Source: Christensenellaceae bacterium
Lineage (GTDB): Bacteria > Bacillota > Clostridia > Christensenellales > CAG-138
Length of the DNA stretch: 24,000 nt
NCBI GenBank assembly: GCA_963665515.1
Contig: OY762278.1
Span: 383,423-407,422, forward strand
Direction: 5' to 3'
Positions 4,295-12,212 of the stretch are shown one piece after another. Below the pieces are notes generated by a model, which searched no databases, was not told the origin of the DNA, and worked only from the letters and a program-made list of their open reading frames with translations. How positions within the stretch are numbered: position 1 is the first letter of the stretch; the number at the start of each line of letters is the position of its first letter. A program made the translations under genes and the position numbers.

Positions 4295-6139
4295 TTACTC
4301 CAGCCGGACGAAAACCTCCGCGCCATGTTTGCACACGGGGCAGATGAAGTCCGGCGGCAAAACGTCGCCCTCGTAGATATACCCGCAGACGGTGCAGAGC
4401 CAACCTTTTTTCTTCTTTTGCTCTTCGGTCGGTTTCGGTTTGATGTTTTTGCGATAATACGCATAGGTGACCGACGGCTCGGACGAAAGCTTTTTCGCCT
4501 CCGTCAGGTCGGCGACAAACAGCGTGTGCGAGCCGTAGTCCACAGCGGAAATCACCTTGCCGCTGATCAGCGCATTCACACCTTCCGTCACGTAAAGCAG
4601 CCCGTTTGTGCTGCGCGCAGTCGCGTCGAACGTCTTAAACTTATCGACGTCCTTGCCGCTGTGCAGGCCAAAGCGCTCGTAAAGATCGAATTTGGAACTT
4701 TCGGTCAAAACCGAAACGTTGAAGATACCGGTTTTAAGGATCATGTCGTGCGTCAGGTTGCCCTTGTTCACGGCGATCGAAATCCGCTTCGGCGTGTTGG
4801 TGATCTGTGTGACCGTGTTGATGATGCAGCCGTTGTCGCGCTCGCCGTCCTTGGCGGTCAACACGAACAGGCCGTAACTGAGGGTAAACAGCGCCGCATT
4901 CTCAATTTCGCCCGCGGCAACTTCCGTTACCTTTGGAACATCGATCGTCGCGGCGATTGCGCCGACCAGCGCATCCATCTCTTCGTTTTGCGAATCCTTA
5001 ATTGCCGAACGGATGGTGACCATGTTGTCGAGGAACTTCATGTTCTTCTGCCCGGCAAGCATTTCTTTCATGAGCTTTCCACTCTGCGGCGCCCACGACC
5101 CGTTTTCAATAAATGCGACCGTACGGTTCTGGATATTGTGCAGTACGAGGTCGCGAAGTAACTCCTCCATCGTAATGAAGATGCCCGCGTTGTAGGTAGA
5201 CGAGGCAAACACAAGATGGCTGTAGCGGAACGCCGACGATACGATCTTGGAAGTTGCGTCGACGGAAACGTCGAACATGGCGACGGTCACGCCCGCATCG
5301 CGCAGACGGCAGGCGAGAATCTCCGCCGCGTTCGCCGTGTTACCGTAGATGGACGCGTACGCGATCAGTACGCCCGTCTCTTCCGGTTCATAGCTGCTCC
5401 AGCGGCGATATTTTTCGATGTATGCGCCAAAGTCCTTGCGGTGTACCGGCCCGTGCAGCGGACAGATCATCTGCGCGTCCAGCGCGCCAACTTTTTTCAG
5501 TGCGGATTGCACCTGCGGGCCATATTTTCCGATGATGTTGGCGTAATAACGCCGCGCTTCTTCCATAAACGCGCTGCCGTAAAAATCCACTTCGTCTGCA
5601 AACAGCGCACCGTTGAGCGCGCCGAACGTTCCAAACGCATCCGCAGAAAACAGGATTTTGTCGGTTTTGTCAAACGTGAACATGACCTCCGGCCAGTGCA
5701 CCATCGGCGCCATGACGAACATGAACTCGTGCCTGCCGGTGGAGAGCGTTTCGCCCTCTTTCACGAGGATGGCGCGCTCGCCGATGTCCTCGTCAAAAAA
5801 CTGCTCGATCATATTCTTCGTCTTTGCGTTGCAGACCACCTTGACTTCGGGATAGTGGCAAAGCAGGTCCATCAGCGTCGCGGAATGGTCCGGCTCCATA
5901 TGCTGGACGACGACATAGTCCAGTTTTCGTTCACCAAGCACATGCGCCACGTTCTCGAAAAACACCTTCCCGATGGCCTTGTCAACGGTGTCAAACAGAA
6001 TGGTTTTTTCATCCATTATGAGATAGGAATTGTAGGAAACGCCGTCCGGAATCGAATAGACTCCTTCAAACAGCATCAGCCTCCGGTCGTCTCCGCCAAC
6101 CCACGTGATATCGTCGGTCACTTTTCTTGTACAGTACAT
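4295..6139 (-). CDS. Multidomain flavodiiron protein: metallo-beta-lactamase-like diiron domain + flavodoxin + flavin-reductase-like domain + rubredoxin
   Basis: Diiron motif HMEPDH (nt 5885-5902). Flavodoxin segment VLIAYASIYGNTANAAE. FMN split-barrel flavin reductase-like segment LSYGLFVLTAKDGERDNGCIINTV. C-terminal rubredoxin CTVCGYIYEG...CPVCKHG (about 4298-4400). Confidence 0.9.
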   Translation of the reverse strand: MYCTRKVTDDITWVGGDDRRLMLFEGVYSIPDGVSYNSYLIMDEKTILFDTVDKAIGKVFFENVAHVLGERKLDYVVVQHMEPDHSATLMDLLCHYPEVKVVCNAKTKNMIEQFFDEDIGERAILVKEGETLSTGRHEFMFVMAPMVHWPEVMFTFDKTDKILFSADAFGTFGALNGALFADEVDFYGSAFMEEARRYYANIIGKYGPQVQSALKKVGALDAQMICPLHGPVHRKDFGAYIEKYRRWSSYEPEETGVLIAYASIYGNTANAAEILACRLRDAGVTVAMFDVSVDATSKIVSSAFRYSHLVFASSTYNAGIFITMEELLRDLVLHNIQNRTVAFIENGSWAPQSGKLMKEMLAGQKNMKFLDNMVTIRSAIKDSQNEEMDALVGAIAATIDVPKVTEVAAGEIENAALFTLSYGLFVLTAKDGERDNGCIINTVTQITNTPKRISIAVNKGNLTHDMILKTGIFNVSVLTESSKFDLYERFGLHSGKDVDKFKTFDATARSTNGLLYVTEGVNALISGKVISAVDYGSHTLFVADLTEAKKLSSEPSVTYAYYRKNIKPKPTEEQKKKKGWLCTVCGYIYEGDVLPPDFICPVCKHGAEVFVRLE

Positions 6140-6222
6140 TGTGTCTTCTGCCCCTTTCCGTATGAATCGCTCTGTTTTAAACTTTTTACCATGTCCACGC
6201 GGTTTTCAATCGCCGCCGCGGG

Positions 6223-7161
6223 TCAGTTTTCATAATCCGTTGCAAACGCGGAAAATCCACTGCTCTGCGTTTGGGTTCCGTCCTGCGAAATCCATAATGC
6301 TTCCACGTCGTCCAGCGACTCGACCAGCGCCATGCCTTCATCCGGCGGCATGCTGAACAGTCCTGTCGTCAGCGCATCCGCCAGTCCCGAATCCACCGTC
6401 AGCACCGACACGGAATCGTAGTATGTCGACGGCATCAGCGTCGCCGGGTCGATAATATGATGGTAATCCACACCGTCCACGGTATAATACCGCTCGTATG
6501 TGCCGCTGGTGACGAGGCTTTGCCCGTCCGCATTCACAACCTTGAGATAGCCGCCCGAATACGGGTCCTGAATGCCGACCTTCCAGTTCGTGCCGTCCGG
6601 TCGCGTGCCGATTGCGCAGACATTGCCGCCCGCGCTGAGCAGCATGGACGTAACGCCCTCACTCTCCATCTGCTCCATCACCTGCTGCACGGCATACCCT
6701 TTTGCAATCGCACCCACATCGATGCGCATGTCCGCATCCGCAAGGTAGAGCGTGCCCGCCGTGCGGTCGATCACGATATCGTCGATATTCGCATGCTCCG
6801 CCGCCTGCTCCAGCAGCGCCATCGGCGGCAGCGCGGCATTGTCCGGGTCGTCCAGCCCGGCCTGACGATAGTCCGCCCAGATGGCGAGTACGTCACCCAT
6901 TGCAATGTTCATTCGACCGTTCGTCAGCGTATCCATATCCTTTGCAAATGCAACAAGGTCAAGGATTTTTTCATCCGCGGCAACGGGAGCGGTTCCCGCG
7001 TTTTCATTGACGGTGTAAAGGTTGTTCATCCCGTCGTATGCATGGTAGATATCGTAAAGCTGGTGATATTCCGTTAAAAGCGCATGTGCTTCTTCTATGT
7101 GTGCGGATGCGGCGTTTTCGCTTGTGTCGTAAATTACAATTGTTGTTACAGTGTCGAACAC
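6223..7161 (-). CDS. apbE: FAD:protein FMN transferase (ApbE family). The true N-terminus probably lies further upstream (see finding).
   Basis: ApbE motifs IDVGAIAKGYAV, LLSAGGNVCAIG, WKVGIQDP and TSGTYERYY..HHIIDP. The track start is GTG 7161, but the same frame stays open to 7287 and encodes a lipoprotein signal peptide (KRTKYQFSIIAIICAAVFLLFGC) with no ATG/GTG/TTG. Confidence 0.85.
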   Translation of the reverse strand: MFDTVTTIVIYDTSENAASAHIEEAHALLTEYHQLYDIYHAYDGMNNLYTVNENAGTAPVAADEKILDLVAFAKDMDTLTNGRMNIAMGDVLAIWADYRQAGLDDPDNAALPPMALLEQAAEHANIDDIVIDRTAGTLYLADADMRIDVGAIAKGYAVQQVMEQMESEGVTSMLLSAGGNVCAIGTRPDGTNWKVGIQDPYSGGYLKVVNADGQSLVTSGTYERYYTVDGVDYHHIIDPATLMPSTYYDSVSVLTVDSGLADALTTGLFSMPPDEGMALVESLDDVEALWISQDGTQTQSSGFSAFATDYEN

Positions 7162-7335
7162 ATCGAAAAAGGTCTGCTCATACCGCCGTGGCTCTTTGGT
7201 CGCCGTGCATCCAAAGAGCAGGAAGACAGCCGCGCATATGATTGCGATTATGCTAAATTGATACTTCGTTCTTTTGTTCCTCCCAATACACTGCGCCTGT
7301 TGGCATTATTCCATGTTTTGTATGGTTTCGCAAGC

Positions 7336-7911
7336 CTAACCTTGTTTTTCACTAGGTTGGACGTTCTGTTTTTCCAGATGCTCTCGCTGTGCATTTTTCC
7401 CGGCGCCATTGCCGCTGTGTTCCAGTCCGCGAAACGTATATTTGGCGATGATGCCGGTCAACGTTCCCGTAATCACAGCCGCAACCAGCAGCACCGGCAG
7501 ATAGGCCAGCACCGCGCGCGTTTCCACCACGAAGCAGGCAACGATCATCTGGCCGATGTTGTGCGCCGCCGCGCCGCATACGCTCACACCGATCACGCTG
7601 ACGCTCTTTATCTTTTTGACCAGTATCATGGTGATCAGGCTCACTACACCGCCTGCGAAGCTATACAGCATGGCCGCAACCCCGCCGAACAAGATACCGG
7701 ACAAGCCGACTTTGAGGATCATCAAAAGCGTTGCGCTTTTTGTATCCAGAAGATACAGCGCATACAGCAATACTGTGTTTGCAAGGCCCAGCTTGATGCC
7801 GGGAATCGCCGTGATCGGGATCAGATGCTCTATGTAGCCGAGTACAAGCGCGACCGCCGTGAGGATACCGAGACGCGTTATCGTATTCACGTCCGTTTGT
7901 CTTGCGCTCAC
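7336..7911 (-). CDS. Gx transporter family membrane protein (Pfam 'heptaprenyl diphosphate synthase component I'-like)
   Basis: 191 aa and polytopic. The sequence TRLGILTAVALVLGYIEHLIPI..IPGIKLGLANTV...LKVGLSGILFGG is characteristic of this family. The GTG start overlaps the upstream stop (GTGA at 7908-7911). Confidence 0.75.
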   Translation of the reverse strand: MSARQTDVNTITRLGILTAVALVLGYIEHLIPITAIPGIKLGLANTVLLYALYLLDTKSATLLMILKVGLSGILFGGVAAMLYSFAGGVVSLITMILVKKIKSVSVIGVSVCGAAAHNIGQMIVACFVVETRAVLAYLPVLLVAAVITGTLTGIIAKYTFRGLEHSGNGAGKNAQREHLEKQNVQPSEKQG

Positions 7912-8288
7912 TGTCCGTCCTCCTCTATGCCCGTAACTTCAATCGACACGCCGTTGGGCATGCAAATAATCCAGTTATTCATCAGAATATCGTCGGAATG
8001 AGTGTGCGTATCAATCACGCCTTGTTTGACGCAAAGCTGGTTTTTGCAGGTGGAAGACTCCATCCGTACACCGCTTTCGCCAATGACGACAACATTCACC
8101 TTGCCATCGCCCTGATCGATGGTGATGGTTTGGTAGTCTTCCGCCGATACACGCGCATACACGTCACCGCCGACATAGATGGTCACCATCGCCGCAGAAT
8201 CCGCAGGCTGGACAAGCCGCGAAACGGCGAACGCGACCAGCGCAAGCAGCAGTACTCCGCCAATGATGAACCAGTCTGTTTTTCGCAT
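7908..8288 (-). CDS. NusG domain II-containing (DUF1312) membrane-anchored protein
   Basis: I prefer ATG 8288 (RBS GAGGGA 6 nt upstream), because the track start 8318 lies upstream of the predicted TSS. N-terminal TM WFIIGGVLLLALVAFAV. Motif CKNQLCVKQG....WIICMPNGVSIEV is typical of NusG_II proteins. Confidence 0.8.
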   Translation of the reverse strand: MRKTDWFIIGGVLLLALVAFAVSRLVQPADSAAMVTIYVGGDVYARVSAEDYQTITIDQGDGKVNVVVIGESGVRMESSTCKNQLCVKQGVIDTHTHSDDILMNNWIICMPNGVSIEVTGIEEDGQ

Positions 8289-8322
8289 AGGATTCCCTCG
8301 TGTTAATTTTATCAACAACGAT

Positions 8323-8331
8323 ATTGTACCA
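8323..8331 (-). promoter_or_regulatory. Extended -10 promoter element for the NusG_II/Gx/ApbE operon
   Basis: The minus strand reads TGgTACAAT, and there is no good -35. It lies about 35 nt upstream of ATG 8288. Confidence 0.45.
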
Positions 8332-8362
8332 CCTTTGCCGTCCGGCCTTCCACACTTTGGTG

Positions 8363-8401
8363 CAACAAAAACGCCGCCGGGAGGTTTGTCTCCAGGCGGC
8401 G
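8363..8401 (-). terminator. Rho-independent terminator of the DUF2992 gene
   Basis: Minus strand: CGCCGCCtGGAG-ACAAAC-CTCCcGGCGGCG followed by TTTTTGTTG, 8 nt after the stop at 8409. Confidence 0.8.
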
Positions 8402-8408
8402 CCGCGGG

Positions 8409-8822
8409 CTAATGCCCTCTGTGTTTGGCTTTCTTCTTTTCCTGTCGAAGCAGAATTTTTCGCTCGTCTTGTGCGTGTTTCTCCTCGCGGGACAGTTCTT
8501 TGTTCGCCTGTTTGCCGGCTTCATACTGCGCCTTCAGCGCCTGCTGCGCTTTTGTTCCAATACCGGTCGTTGAAACAGCGCGGGCAGCTTCCCGTTGCAT
8601 CCGCTTGGGATTCCCCATGGCCTTTCGCGTTACATCGCCAAATTCCGGTTTCGAAAACATAAGCGTGTAGTAGCGCTCCAGCACAAAAGCCAAGACTTCC
8701 GCGTCGCTCGGCTGCGCGCCAAACGTCGCTTTTGCGACGCAAAATGAACGGCCGTCCGTTCTTTCCCAAACACCAACCCAGAACGGGTCCTCAAAGAAAA
8801 CCGTACATGCAATGCTAATCAC
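8409..8822 (-). CDS. DUF2992 (YjdF-like) family protein, 137 aa
   Basis: GTG 8822 lies 7 nt after AGGAGG (8830-8835). VISIACTVFFEDPFWVGVWE...GNPKRMQREA...TKAQQALK...KKKAKHRGH matches my memory of the YjdF/DUF2992 family. The 192-aa track ORF (to 8987) is a spurious 5' extension through the leader. Confidence 0.8.
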   Translation of the reverse strand: MISIACTVFFEDPFWVGVWERTDGRSFCVAKATFGAQPSDAEVLAFVLERYYTLMFSKPEFGDVTRKAMGNPKRMQREAARAVSTTGIGTKAQQALKAQYEAGKQANKELSREEKHAQDERKILLRQEKKKAKHRGH

Positions 8823-8946
8823 ATCGCATCCTCCTGTCCGCGGCCGTCTTTTTTTCGAAGGCGGACAACCCCAGGAGGGCAGGTTACTGACGAAATAACT
8901 CGCATGCGGACTACCAACCGCATCGTGTTTTTCCTTCGCAGGCCGC
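8823..8946 (-). promoter_or_regulatory. Structured 5' leader, candidate yjdF-class riboswitch with SD sequestration
   Basis: About 124 nt lie between the predicted TSS and the start codon. Long-range helix: GCGGCC (8941-8946) pairs with GGCCGC (8840-8845), and CGAAGG with CCTTCG. Hairpin ATGCGG-TTGGTAGT-CCGCAT (8904-8923). CCTCCTG (8872-8878) is complementary to the SD CAGGAGG (8830-8836). The downstream gene belongs to the family the yjdF motif is named for. Confidence 0.4.
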
Positions 8947-8952
8947 AACGCG

Positions 8953-8981
8953 ATTGTAGCATGACTGCTTCCTCTTGGCAA
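8953..8981 (-). promoter_or_regulatory. Sigma-A promoter of the DUF2992 gene
   Basis: Minus strand: TTGCCA (8976-8981), 17-nt spacer, extended -10 TGcTACAAT (-10 hexamer at 8953-8958). Confidence 0.65.
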
Positions 8982-9061
8982 CCGCACAATATGATGATAT
9001 CGCAGACAAATAGACGTTTATCCGTTATACTCTAATTGTAAATCGAACAGGAGGTGTCGAC

Positions 9062-10075
9062 ATGAAGATACTGATGATTGGCGGAACAGGATTGCTCGGC
9101 AGTCAGGGTGCACGTGAACTTGTCAAGCGCGGACACTCGGTTCATTCCATCGCGCTTCCGCCTCTGCCACAGGGCGCTTTTCTCCCGCCGGAAATGACGC
9201 TGACGCTCGGTAACATAAACGATATGACGGATGAAGAACTAAAAAAACAGTTCGAAGGCGTTGAGGGGTTCGTCTTTGCCGCTGGTGTAGACGAACGCAT
9301 CGAAGGCCCCGCGCCCATCTACGATTTCTTTAAAAAGTACAACATTACGCCGTTGGAACGGCTTTTACGCATTGCAAAGCAAAGCGGTGTAAAACGCGCA
9401 GTCGTTGCGGGTTCCTATTTTTCCTACTTTGCCAAAACCCGACCGAAGCTGGAACTCACAAAATGGCATCCATATATCCGCAGCCGGATCGATCAGGAAA
9501 ACATGGCGCTTTCGTTTGCGGACGACGGCTTTAACGTAGCCATACTCGAACTGCCTTATATTTTCGGCGCCCAGAAAGGTCGTAAACCCGTTTGGGTGTT
9601 TCTTGTTAAAATGCTGCTCGGTATGAACGGCCCGGCATTCTATCCGCGCGGCGGAACGACGATGGTCACCGTCCGCCAGGTTGGCGAAGCCATTGCGGGC
9701 GGCATCGAATACAACAGCGGCGGGAACGCATATCCCATCGGCTGGTATAACATGACATGGAAGCAACTACTTTCCATCATGTACAAGCACATGGGATTCC
9801 CGAACAAGCGCATCATCACGATTCCCGACTGGATGTTTTCCATGAATGCAAAGAAAATCGATAAACAGCGCAAAGATGCCGGAACCGAAGGCGGATTGCT
9901 TATGGAAAAATTTACCGCCATGCAGACCAGCGAACTGTTCATCGACAAAGCGGAGGGCTGCCTTCCACTTGGCGTGACGGACGATGATATCGACGCGGCA
10001 ATCGGCGAGTCGGTTCAGCTCAGCATAGACGTGCTGCAAAAAAAAGCGACCGTGATTGATATGAAGGGCGAGTAA
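9062..10075 (+). CDS. NAD(P)-binding Rossmann protein, extended SDR / NAD-dependent epimerase-dehydratase family
   Basis: N-terminal MKILMIGGTGLLGSQGARELVKRGHSV (GxxGxxG) motif; 337 aa; AGGAGG RBS 7 nt upstream. Confidence 0.85.
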   Translation: MKILMIGGTGLLGSQGARELVKRGHSVHSIALPPLPQGAFLPPEMTLTLGNINDMTDEELKKQFEGVEGFVFAAGVDERIEGPAPIYDFFKKYNITPLERLLRIAKQSGVKRAVVAGSYFSYFAKTRPKLELTKWHPYIRSRIDQENMALSFADDGFNVAILELPYIFGAQKGRKPVWVFLVKMLLGMNGPAFYPRGGTTMVTVRQVGEAIAGGIEYNSGGNAYPIGWYNMTWKQLLSIMYKHMGFPNKRIITIPDWMFSMNAKKIDKQRKDAGTEGGLLMEKFTAMQTSELFIDKAEGCLPLGVTDDDIDAAIGESVQLSIDVLQKKATVIDMKGE

Positions 10076-10118
10076 TGCAGTTTCACTTTTTTCTTAAACG
10101 AAAGCTAATAAGTTGGAG

Positions 10119-10153
10119 CTAGGATAGGCCACTATCCTAGTTCTATTTTCTTG
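10119..10153 (+). terminator. Putative terminator after the SDR gene, at the left edge of the low-GC island
   Basis: CTAGGATAG-GCCA-CTATCCTAG (perfect 9-bp stem, 10119-10140) followed by TTCTATTTTCTT. Confidence 0.6.
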
Positions 10154-10203
10154 TAAAGCATTTTCGCGCAAGTTAATTTAAAATACTATGAGGGATTCAG
10201 TTT

Positions 10204-12165
10204 ATGAAACGAGCATATTACCAAAATAACATTCAAAATTTTTGCCAACAGACAGTGTCTGAAATTCTCGGAGAAATAGCATCAAACAATAATTTCGCGC
10301 TTGAACAAAAGCAGCGCGACGCTTGGTTGAAGGAAATTTCCATTCTGCAACACTCGCTTTCTTGTCTCTGTGATGGCGGCATTGTCTTTGAATATTCGAT
10401 TCCCCGAATTGGCGCTCGAATAGATAATGTGTTCATATGCCAAGGCACAATCTATGTTATTGAATTCAAAGTGGGCGAAAAAGCGTATCCAAAGCATGCT
10501 ATCGGGCAAGTACTCGACTATGCATTAGATTTAAAATATTTTCATCAAGCCAGCCAAACAAGAATAATCGTGCCAATTCTCGTATGCACACATGCTCCAA
10601 GTTATAACAACACAGTCGAAAAAGATGCTGACAATGTTTGCCACGTGATTCGTGCGAACGAATCCAACCTGCGCGATATAATTCTATCGTTAACTCAACA
10701 ATTTTCCGATATCCCATTAACCGTTGACAATTGGATTCAATCTCCTTACATGCCTACTCCTACAATTATTGAGGCCGCTCAAGCTTTGTATCGAGGTCAT
10801 GATGTTAATGATATCTCGCGTTGCGATTCAGATAGATACAATCTATCTCTTACAACAGAGGTAATCAACCAAATAATCGAAGTGAGCAAGAAATCTCATA
10901 AAAAATCTATTTGTTTCATAACCGGTGTGCCTGGTGCAGGAAAAACGCTTGTTGGTTTGAATGTCGCAAATTATCGGCACAACTTTATCGAAGATGAACA
11001 TGCTGTATTCCTTTCTGGAAATGGTCCGTTGGTGAAAGTACTGCGCGAGGCTTTAGCTCGAGATGAGTATGAACGATCTGATCATCATGTCAAGAAAGGA
11101 TTCTCAAAAAAGAAAGCAAGTGCCTTTATACAAAACATCCATCATTTTCGCGACGATGCTATTACATCAGGTTCTGTACCTATCGAAAAAATCGCCGTAT
11201 TCGATGAATCCCAGCGTGCTTGGACAAAAGAACAAACTTCCAGCTTTATGGCAAAAAAAGGTTGTTCCAATTGGACAATGTCCGAACCTGAATTCTTAAT
11301 CAGCGTAATGGATCGTCATACTGATTGGGCAGTTATCATTTGTCTTGTTGGCGGCGGACAGGAAATCAACACTGGCGAAGCAGGTCTTCCTGCTTGGTTT
11401 GCTGCACTAAAAGCAGGTTTCTCTCATTGGTCAGTATATGTTTCTAATAAGATCACTGATCTTGAATATACGCAGGGAATGCCATTAAATGACTTGTTTG
11501 GAGATCTTAGTGTCATTACTTATGAAAAACTTCATTTAGCAGTTTCATTGCGTTCATTTCGAAATGAACGTGTTTCAGAATTTGTCAAATCACTACTTGA
11601 TTTGAACCAAAATCGAGCACAAGAACTTGTTTTTGAGTTGGATCAAGATTATCCTATTGCCTTGACCCGAAACCTTCATATTGCTAAAAAGTGGGTGCGG
11701 CAGAAAGCACGTGGGAGCGAACGATGTGGATTAATCGCAAGTTCGGGTGCAAAACGGTTAAGAATGTTTGGTATATGGATACAAAGCAAAATAGAAGTGG
11801 AGGAATGGTTCTTAAATCCCGCTGATGATGTTCGTTCGTCATGTTTTCTTGAGGATACTGCAACAGAGTTTGACATTCAAGGGCTTGAGATCGATTGGGC
11901 GATTGTTGCCTGGGATGCTGATTATCGTTTTACCGAAGATCAATTTGTCTGTCATCGTTTCGTAGGCAAACGTTGGAATTTAGTAAGACAGCAGGAATCG
12001 CAGTTGTATTTAAAAAATTCATATCGCGTTCTTTTAACAAGAGCGCGTCAAGGTTTTATTATCTTCATCCCAAATGGAGATGATTCGGATTCTACAAGAA
12101 AACGTTCATATTACGATGGAACATATCAATATCTAAAAGCTCTTGGAATACAAGAAATCTTCTAG
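10204..12165 (+). CDS. PD-(D/E)xK (RecB-like) nuclease domain fused to a DUF2075/Schlafen-type P-loop ATPase (SF1 helicase-like), 653 aa
   Basis: Nuclease motifs: D74 (10423-10425), E87-F-K89 (10462-10470), QVLDY (10507-10521). Walker A GVPGAGKT (10924-10947). Walker B FDESQ (D334-E335 at 11203-11208). SF1 motif VI-like YRVLLTRARQG (12022-12054). RBS GAGGGA 8 nt upstream. GC is visibly about 40% or lower against about 55% in the flanks. Confidence 0.85.
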   Translation: MKRAYYQNNIQNFCQQTVSEILGEIASNNNFALEQKQRDAWLKEISILQHSLSCLCDGGIVFEYSIPRIGARIDNVFICQGTIYVIEFKVGEKAYPKHAIGQVLDYALDLKYFHQASQTRIIVPILVCTHAPSYNNTVEKDADNVCHVIRANESNLRDIILSLTQQFSDIPLTVDNWIQSPYMPTPTIIEAAQALYRGHDVNDISRCDSDRYNLSLTTEVINQIIEVSKKSHKKSICFITGVPGAGKTLVGLNVANYRHNFIEDEHAVFLSGNGPLVKVLREALARDEYERSDHHVKKGFSKKKASAFIQNIHHFRDDAITSGSVPIEKIAVFDESQRAWTKEQTSSFMAKKGCSNWTMSEPEFLISVMDRHTDWAVIICLVGGGQEINTGEAGLPAWFAALKAGFSHWSVYVSNKITDLEYTQGMPLNDLFGDLSVITYEKLHLAVSLRSFRNERVSEFVKSLLDLNQNRAQELVFELDQDYPIALTRNLHIAKKWVRQKARGSERCGLIASSGAKRLRMFGIWIQSKIEVEEWFLNPADDVRSSCFLEDTATEFDIQGLEIDWAIVAWDADYRFTEDQFVCHRFVGKRWNLVRQQESQLYLKNSYRVLLTRARQGFIIFIPNGDDSDSTRKRSYYDGTYQYLKALGIQEIF

Positions 12166-12171
12166 TGCAAA

Positions 12172-12202
12172 AATAGCGCCGTGCAAATTGCACGGCGCTA
12201 TT
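12172..12202. terminator. Bidirectional terminator (best as the ychF terminator)
   Basis: Perfect 15-bp inverted repeat AATAGCGCCGTGCAA-a-TTGCACGGCGCTATT. On the minus strand it is followed by TTTTTG. Confidence 0.75.
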
Positions 12203-12212
12203 GTTATAAAAA

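Follow-up and report, generated by a model that had tools for sequence, protein, structure and literature searches.

A solitary nuclease–helicase gene beside ychF in a Christensenellaceae genome, a probable stand-alone anti-phage defence of the Nhi-like (PDC-S41) family

The 653-residue protein encoded at positions 10204–12165 of a 24,000-nt stretch of a Christensenellaceae bacterium genome (GenBank assembly GCA_963665515.1, contig OY762278.1, positions 383,423–407,422 of the forward strand; hereafter the window) was assigned by sequence as a divergent member of the Nhi-like family of nuclease–helicases, which is held in PADLOC under the label PDC-S41, and it probably acts as a stand-alone anti-phage system. 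An earlier note on this DNA had put the gene forward as a stand-alone defence candidate and had stated that no named system could be assigned to it. The candidacy was strengthened by full-length homology to an experimentally verified Nhi-like protein, and the statement about named systems no longer held, because PDC-S41 corresponded to that same family.

The PADLOC hidden Markov model (HMM) for PDC-S41 (PDLC05014) matched residues 1–652 of the window protein along profile positions 1–653 of 657 (E = 3.1e-281), and homologs 42–47% identical to the protein likewise matched this model (E < 1e-240). The PADLOC model for Nhi (PDLC02372) matched only the P-loop region (residues 210–256; E = 2.9e-5), and a match to AbiO was also at the P-loop level only. 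Nhi-like systems consist of an N-terminal nuclease and a DUF2075 domain, were experimentally verified for SG141 from Bacillus cereus FSL H8-0482, and share the organisation of Nhi without sequence identity to it (Millman et al. 2022). A protein from a megaplasmid of the Bacillus cereus group (locus L086, WP_173602619) was 95% identical to SG141 over 399 residues, the comparison covering the first 399 residues of SG141 as printed in the supplement of Millman et al. The L086 protein was matched along its whole length by the PDC-S41 model (E = 1.6e-116) and only in its P-loop region by the Nhi model; because PDC-S41 matched this Bacillus protein from end to end, PDC-S41 and the Nhi-like family were taken as one. 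Residues 9–631 of the window protein were aligned by BLASTP with residues 16–596 of the L086 protein at 28% identity (E = 4e-70), and D74, ExK, QxxxY, Walker A, FDExQRAW, GxGQEI, and YRVxLTRxRxG were in register between the two. Akkermansia, a source of further homologs, was not found in the Nhi-like member table of Millman et al. (2022), so that their family definition may not extend to the clade of the window protein.

The coding sequence and its predicted domains and motifs were located as follows.

10204–12165, forward strand: coding sequence of the Nhi-like/PDC-S41 nuclease–helicase (653 residues, ATG start), from the open reading frame (ORF) call with Pfam, PADLOC, and BLASTP
10204–10743, forward strand: predicted PD-(D/E)xK nuclease domain (residues 1–180), from the fold model, Foldseek, invariant residues, and weak HMM matches
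10423–10425, 10462–10464, and 10468–10470, forward strand: putative nuclease catalytic codons D74, E87, and K89, respectively, invariant in the alignment
10507–10521, forward strand: QxxxY motif (Q102-VLD-Y106), with Q102 and Y106 invariant
10747–10800, forward strand: linker YMPTPTIIEAAQALYRGH (residues 182–199), joining the nuclease to the motor and lying outside the PDDEXK_9 and PF09848 matches
10903–12072, forward strand: superfamily 1 (SF1)-type helicase/ATPase core, SLFN-g3_helicase/DUF2075 (residues 234–623), from Pfam and structural matches
10924–10947, forward strand: Walker A, GVPGAGKT (residues 241–248)
11203–11214, forward strand: Walker B, DESQ (residues 334–337)
11350–11367, forward strand: GGGQEI
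12022–12054, forward strand: motif VI-like YRVLLTRARQG (residues 607–617)

Invariance was judged in an alignment of 51 homologs that were 57–71% identical. All motifs named in the earlier note were found at their positions, and the key residues were invariant: D74, E87, K89, Q102, and Y106 in the nuclease, and G241–T248, D334, E335, Q337, R613, and R615 in the SF1 motifs. Conservation in the family peaked in the linker, where 15 of 18 residues were invariant, and the linker's counterpart was recognisable in the Bacillus cereus Nhi-like protein as YEPSPSMLEAARSIL. The reading of the ORF as a nuclease fused to a DUF2075/Schlafen-type ATPase was borne out by Pfam PF09848 (SLFN-g3_helicase, formerly DUF2075), which matched residues 234–623 with an E-value of 2.5e-76, and by the structural matches described below. 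The nuclease was seen only faintly by profiles, with a sub-threshold match to PDDEXK_9 in Pfam (residues 72–123; E = 0.036) and a weak match to the Cas4_II HMM (E = 7e-4); ResIII in Pfam was also sub-threshold (E = 0.0017). No invariant Cys was found in the N-terminal domain across the 51 sequences, and the Cas4-type Fe-S cysteine set was accordingly not found, with C128 being nearly invariant. The core RNase domain of Schlafen proteins (AlbA_2/SLFN, Ex4ExK) was not found by Pfam, which detected the group-3 helicase domain only. Searches of NCBIfam and PHROGs gave no meaningful match, and no NCBIfam housekeeping family was retrieved.

The full-length protein was modelled by AlphaFold2 from the 51-sequence alignment with a predicted local distance difference test (pLDDT) score of 82 and a predicted template modelling (pTM) score of 0.79. 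When this model was compared with the PDB by Foldseek, the best solved match was SLFN11 (E = 1.7e-10), SLFN14 was also matched, and RecD, Upf1, Sen1, and nsp13 were retrieved with a probability of 1.0. The motor was assigned by this model to the SF1B-type or Schlafen-type helicase cores. The whole chain, nuclease and motor together, was matched by the EcoR124I HsdR subunit (E ~5e-5). A separate model of the N-terminal 200 residues (pLDDT of 85.7) had an α-β-β-β-α-β core, in which D74 was located at the start of strand 73–79 and E87-x-K89 at the end of the adjacent strand 82–89. The top Foldseek matches of this model were all PD-(D/E)xK nucleases (McrC, Cdn1/Can2/Card1, VC1899, Mus81, Shedu, EcoO109I, Dna2, and DdmD), and the predicted fold thus placed the domain in that superfamily. 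Dna2 was weak by fold (E = 0.4), and the RecB and AddAB nuclease domains were not among the top 50 matches. The earlier description of the nuclease as RecB-like was therefore supported at the level of the superfamily and the QxxxY motif only, because no RecB or Cas4 structure was prominent and the Cas4 cysteine set was absent. Nothing informative came from searching the PDB by sequence: the whole protein gave SLFN5 at E = 0.59, and the N-terminal profile gave chance matches to LSm4.

The window protein and the Nhi-like SG141 have in common a PD-(D/E)xK nuclease, the conserved linker, a DUF2075 SF1 motor, and a single-gene arrangement; the window protein was alignable over 95% of its length, and both were caught by PDC-S41. 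The window protein is ~40 residues longer, with a ~19-residue insert between Walker A and Walker B (residues ~285–303) and a longer C-terminal tail. Its gene is chromosomal and solitary, whereas the Bacillus homolog is located in a plasmid defence island, and its clade comprises gut and anaerobic Firmicutes, Akkermansia, and others. Nhi itself (SERP2475; Bari et al. 2022) has the same domain logic, with one protein as sensor and effector, and a patchy distribution resembling that left by horizontal gene transfer. However, homology to the window protein was not detectable beyond the P-loop region with the PADLOC Nhi model, and the extra C-terminal domain of the Nhi type was not detected in the window protein by Pfam. 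The group-3 Schlafen proteins (SLFN11, SLFN14, and SLFN5) have a motor of the same Pfam family, PF09848, and an antiviral or genome-surveillance role likened to that predicted for the window protein, in which the Ex4ExK RNase core is replaced by a domain of the PD-(D/E)xK DNase type; the sequence similarity to SLFN5 was marginal at the E-value given above. In the type I restriction subunit HsdR of EcoR124I, an N-terminal PD-(D/E)xK nuclease likewise precedes an ATP-driven translocase within a single chain. The HsdR motor belongs to superfamily 2 and depends on HsdM, HsdS, and methylation, whereas the window motor is SF1B-like, and no methylase or specificity gene was found in the window. RecB, Cas4, and Dna2 have the same motif order, D...ExK...QxxxY, and a nuclease fused to an SF1 motor, but the nuclease of RecB and AddA is C-terminal whereas that of the window protein is N-terminal.

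The base composition of the gene is foreign to its neighbours. The AT-rich region of about 2.1 kb described earlier was the deepest trough of the window: positions 10076–12212 had a GC content of 0.393, against 0.518 for the SDR gene upstream and 0.555 for ychF downstream, and formed the lowest-GC 2.1-kb stretch in the 24 kb (median 0.537; next lowest elsewhere 0.453). The GC content at third codon positions (GC3) was 0.315 in the gene and 0.656 ± 0.072 in the 17 other genes of the window, which placed the gene ~4.7 standard deviations below them. The first 60 nt of the gene were low in GC as claimed, at 31.7% rather than the 30% stated in the note.

A scan of species-representative genomes anchored on ychF gave 80 loci (best ychF identity of 88%) and placed the window in a clade of Christensenellales/Clostridia; the gene was absent from all 80 of these loci. 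A private recent insertion, first suggested by the 80 gene-free loci, was ruled out by positional orthologs (66–71% identity) that adjoined ychF in at least five related lineages (loci L182, L184, L187, L188, and L189). In L182, ApbE-HpreDiP-NusG_II-SDR was followed by the gene in convergent orientation with ychF, the same as in the window. The gene was also convergent with ychF in L184, L187, L188, and L189, where a response regulator was located upstream and the gene was always proximal to ychF; the cargo between the two was absent in L187 and L188, a GGDEF gene in L184, and an α/β-hydrolase gene with an acyltransferase gene in L189. Among the six carriers of the clade the upstream neighbour varied, and the cassette was a single gene in all six. 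The CCA-glnS-gltX-ychF arm was collinear in the nearest relatives. On the other side, the ODP-ApbE-HpreDiP-NusG_II-DUF2992-SDR block (4298–10075 in the window; 8211–14045 in L003) adjoined ychF in opposite orientations, with the 653-residue gene at one breakpoint of this inversion, and L002 had other genes beyond ychF. Only the ychF side is fixed; the SDR side undergoes rearrangement and varies in its cargo. Of the proposed acquired insert between housekeeping genes, the foreign and accessory character stood; a fresh insertion and two fixed flanks did not, given the orthologs beside ychF and the variable SDR side.

A tree of ychF and gltX had the topology (WIN,(L003,(L002,(L184,(L187,L004))))), where WIN is the window, and the carriers and three non-carriers were therefore interleaved. 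The gene was absent beside ychF in three equally related lineages, as expected of an accessory gene, and no remnants of it were detected in the non-carrier loci at E ≤ 10. Where it was present in relatives, it never had native composition: the gene was AT-rich in all carriers, with a GC content of 0.42–0.45 against 0.47–0.59 for the rest of the contig (0.53–0.59 for carrier contigs with a flank of at least 2.9 kb). L187 and L004 formed an exact occupied/empty sister pair, in which 2,135 bp corresponded to 43 bp, and 89% nucleotide identity resumed at the stop codon of the response regulator and at the ychF terminator. In L184 and L185 the 2.1-kb cassette was flanked by a perfect 31-bp direct repeat, CAAAAAGAGAGCCTTTCGGCTCTCTTTTATT, which contained the terminator hairpin. 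Its copies were located at 5117–5147 and 7220–7250 of L184 and, as a 25-bp core, at 1972–1996 and 4075–4099 of L185; diverged copies were present in L187, and a single copy in the empty site of L004. No flanking direct repeat or target-site duplication was found around the window gene, and no integrase, transposase, tRNA, or phage gene was found in the window. Flanking repeats as a general signature of the family were rejected, since a repeat of at least 14 bp was found at only one of 53 unrelated loci.

The orthologs of L184 and L187 were under purifying selection, with a ratio of nonsynonymous to synonymous substitution (dN/dS) of ~0.04. Between the same two loci the synonymous divergence (pS) of the gene was 0.70, against 0.31–0.34 for four flanking genes on both sides, and its GC3 was still 0.39–0.45 in hosts at ~0.80. 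Simple vertical descent with neutral amelioration was inadequate to account for these values. The gene tree and the host tree agreed at deep nodes and disagreed at shallow nodes. The locus was best read as a variable hotspot next to the ychF terminator that has long held an accessory cassette and often lost it; within the clade, the cassette may have been re-acquired or its alleles exchanged.

Both hairpins said to bracket the region were real, at 10119–10140 and 12172–12202. They were located together with putative expression signals as follows.

10076–10203, forward strand: AT-rich upstream spacer from the SDR stop to the gene start (GC 0.336), from composition
10114–10145, forward strand: terminator-like hairpin with a 3' T-run; perfect 9-bp core stem at 10119–10140, 14 pairs when extended
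10179–10184, forward strand: putative −10-like hexamer TAAAAT, predicted from the sequence
10190–10195, forward strand: putative ribosome-binding site GAGGGA, 8 nt 5' of the ATG, predicted from the sequence
12172–12202, unstranded: bidirectional intrinsic-terminator hairpin between the stop codons of the convergent 653-residue gene and ychF, from predicted folding

The upstream hairpin resembled a terminator of the SDR gene because a T-run follows it, and it most likely terminates that gene. A hairpin was present at the equivalent upstream position in all carriers; the z-score for folding of the whole 128-nt spacer was only −1.9. No sequence similarity was found between the spacer (10076–10203) and the SDR-downstream region of L003. 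The upstream spacers of the orthologous loci L182, L184, and L187 contained TGnTATAAT. In the window, the promoter role of TAAAAT is putative, since a consensus scan of the upstream spacer gave no full σ70 site. The downstream hairpin had a 14-bp stem with −24.8 kcal/mol and z = −6.0 and was predicted to form on either strand (z ~ −6); a hairpin also followed ychF at every related locus, empty sites included. The two hairpins of the window were unrelated to each other, as were those of L182.

Two further regions of the window were recorded. Tandem forward-strand ORFs at 378–1031 and 1058–1726 (217 and 222 residues) formed a second compositionally odd patch (GC 0.45–0.46, GC3 0.49–0.52, below the rest of the window), had no matches in Pfam and PADLOC scans, and were followed downstream by a TetR-family gene (1888–2469). 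A full-length yjdF/azaaromatic riboswitch (RF01764, 75.7 bits) was located at 8845–8944 on the reverse strand, immediately 5' of the DUF2992 gene. The coding sequence of that gene is probably 8409–8822 (137 residues, as on the source contig), because the listed 192-residue ORF with a GTG start overlaps the riboswitch. This riboswitch was the sole match of an Rfam scan of the window, and no structured RNA was found in the AT-rich region.

The family was large and its distribution was patchy across phyla. A word-indexed search gave at least 8,000 matches, and an exhaustive search gave 4,785, 2,900, and 987 clusters at 50% identity for E ≤ 1e-3, ≤ 1e-10, and ≤ 1e-30, respectively. The named sources included Oscillospiraceae, Clostridiaceae, Veillonellaceae, Akkermansia, and a Nanoarchaeota metagenome-assembled genome. 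Homologs were found on 48 plasmids, among them Persicobacter plasmids at 54% identity, and on 15 IMG/VR viral contigs and one GenBank "Bacteriophage sp." record. When plasmids were searched by tblastn, full-length homologs ~27% identical were found on Bacillus cereus-group megaplasmids. One of these, L086, lies in a plasmid defence island, with genes for a reverse transcriptase, an HNH nuclease, and Shedu around it. Among 60 de-replicated homolog loci, the GC content was more than 0.03 below the flanks in 31 and higher in 6; for the Akkermansia homolog it was 0.38 against 0.55. The 103 nearest-neighbour ORFs of 26 de-replicated loci included Dcm (four times), AIPR and RhuM (twice each), Cas9, Abi_2, GmrSD, and AAA_15. 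With a maximum of four, for Dcm, none of these was a recurrent partner, in agreement with the earlier statement that the gene has no partner within the island. The family is a single-gene unit, both within defence islands and as lone insertions. At one locus (L082, 12880–15561), a CBASS-like SMODS/DncV nucleotidyltransferase gene and two unannotated downstream genes were located ~2.7 kb from a homolog 67% identical to the window protein. Longer representatives of the family were also found (P0135, 829 residues; P0210, 894 residues), of which P0210 had a ~185-residue N-terminal extension ahead of the nuclease domain. This suggests that some members of the family carry further sensor or effector modules as fusions.

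A mechanism was proposed by analogy with Nhi of Staphylococcus epidermidis and with the sensing of single-stranded DNA (ssDNA) by the helicase domain of SLFN11, the nuclease of which is activated when ssDNA binds that domain. Nhi (SERP2475) combines a PD-(D/E)xK nuclease with an SF1 helicase, nicks and unwinds DNA, and limits the accumulation of phage DNA, and variation in the phage single-stranded DNA-binding protein determines escape from it (Bari et al. 2022). In the window protein, the motor domain would load on phage-specific DNA structures, such as replication intermediates that contain ssDNA, would use ATP to translocate along the DNA or unwind it, and would present it to the fused nuclease. 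The nuclease would then nick or degrade the phage DNA, by which accumulation of the phage genome would be blocked. Neither a self-marking methylase nor a partner protein would be required, because sensor and effector would be the same protein. It was considered distinctly unlikely that the ~650-residue clade departs from a simple copy of Nhi, in one of two ways. By analogy with SLFN11, the nuclease could be licensed through an ssDNA-gated switch made up of the linker YMPTPTIIEAAQALYRGH and the SLFN11-like motor. Alternatively, integrase-independent turnover of the cassette could be aimed at the ychF terminator hairpin, a proposal based on the 31-bp hairpin repeats in L184 and L185 and the lone hairpin of the empty site, together with a synonymous divergence above that of the flanking genes and a GC content that has not ameliorated.

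Several points weigh against assignment of the gene as an Nhi-like anti-phage defence. The transfer of mechanism from S. epidermidis Nhi is one of analogy and not of homology, because the PADLOC Nhi model matched the P-loop only, and the identity between the window protein and the verified family member is only 28%. PDC labels are PADLOC candidates obtained through "guilt by embedding", that is, recurrent embedding in known systems, and a literature search found no mention of PDC-S41. The window and many homolog loci have housekeeping neighbours and not a defence island, the Akkermansia gene occupied a single fixed locus across 23 contigs, and the persistence of positional orthologs across related lineages would also suit a host function. 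Such a function, in which the protein would be a non-immune helicase–nuclease of DNA replication, repair, or recombination (Dna2-, RecD-, or AddAB-like) and AT-rich by chance, would accord with the structural resemblance to RecD and to SF1B enzymes of the Dna2 type and with a position beside ychF that has been kept in at least six lineages at the low dN/dS given above, besides the housekeeping flanks and the fixed Akkermansia locus. It was nevertheless judged very unlikely, since interleaved sister lineages lacked the gene or any remnant, the distribution was patchy across phyla, plasmids, and viral contigs, the composition was foreign in every carrier, and no NCBIfam housekeeping family was matched, whereas the homology to a verified defence protein was full-length and members of the family were embedded in defence islands.

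The other explanations concern the way in which an infection would be met and the nucleic acid that would be attacked. An abortive infection system, in which DUF2075 would sense ssDNA or damage and license indiscriminate cutting, host DNA included, so that the cell arrests or dies, was unlikely. It would be consistent with SLFN11 and SLFN14 as the closest solved motor folds, with the activation of SLFN11 through ssDNA on its helicase domain, and with one Staphylococcus aureus Nhi homolog that abrogated growth while blocking phage, and the persistent AT-richness would suit low expression of a toxic gene. However, any toxicity is hypothetical, S. epidermidis Nhi was described as working without abortive infection, and the SF1 motor motifs were all invariant, Walker B and motif VI among them, which argued for real ATP-driven translocation. 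The occurrence of homologs on viral contigs, in a phage record, and on 48 plasmids, with the perfect repeat around the cassette in L184 and L185, raised the prospect of a mobile-element weapon, a phage or plasmid remnant or moron that would serve mainly in the competition of mobile elements with one another, by superinfection exclusion or action against plasmids, over protection of the host. This was highly improbable, given the lack of mobile-element genes in the window, a cassette that comprised no more than one gene in any of the six carriers of the clade, and flanking repeats that were absent from the window and found at 1 of 53 other loci; such a role would also overlap functionally with defence and does not exclude it. 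RNA targeting, in which an Upf1/Sen1/nsp13-like motor would act on RNA and the nuclease would degrade phage transcripts or host RNA, was exceedingly improbable. The Foldseek matches to the RNA helicases Upf1, Sen1, and nsp13 and to the RNA-binding SLFN14 would favour it, as would the Pfam name of the domain, "DNA/RNA helicase", but the great majority of PD-(D/E)xK domains like those of McrC, Can2, Shedu, and Mus81 act as DNases, Nhi acts on DNA, and the Schlafen RNase domain was not found by Pfam.

As a probable Nhi-like defence, the window gene represents a known kind of single-gene defence and not a new system, and the findings leave current thinking on how such systems work unchanged. If the ssDNA-gated switch were true, prokaryotes would have an equivalent of the regulation seen in SLFN11, with a DNase as the effector. 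With its six carriers and three non-carriers, an exact occupied/empty pair among them, the ychF locus provides a natural series for the retention and loss of a single-gene defence at a fixed hotspot, where neutral vertical descent does not explain why a gene conserved in position has stayed far from the base composition of its hosts. For the family as a whole, a large cross-phylum group that PADLOC still labels a candidate is now linked by sequence to an experimentally verified defence protein, and through the correspondence of PDC-S41 with the Nhi-like family, thousands of "candidate" calls made in genomes from the gut and the environment would become Nhi-like calls.

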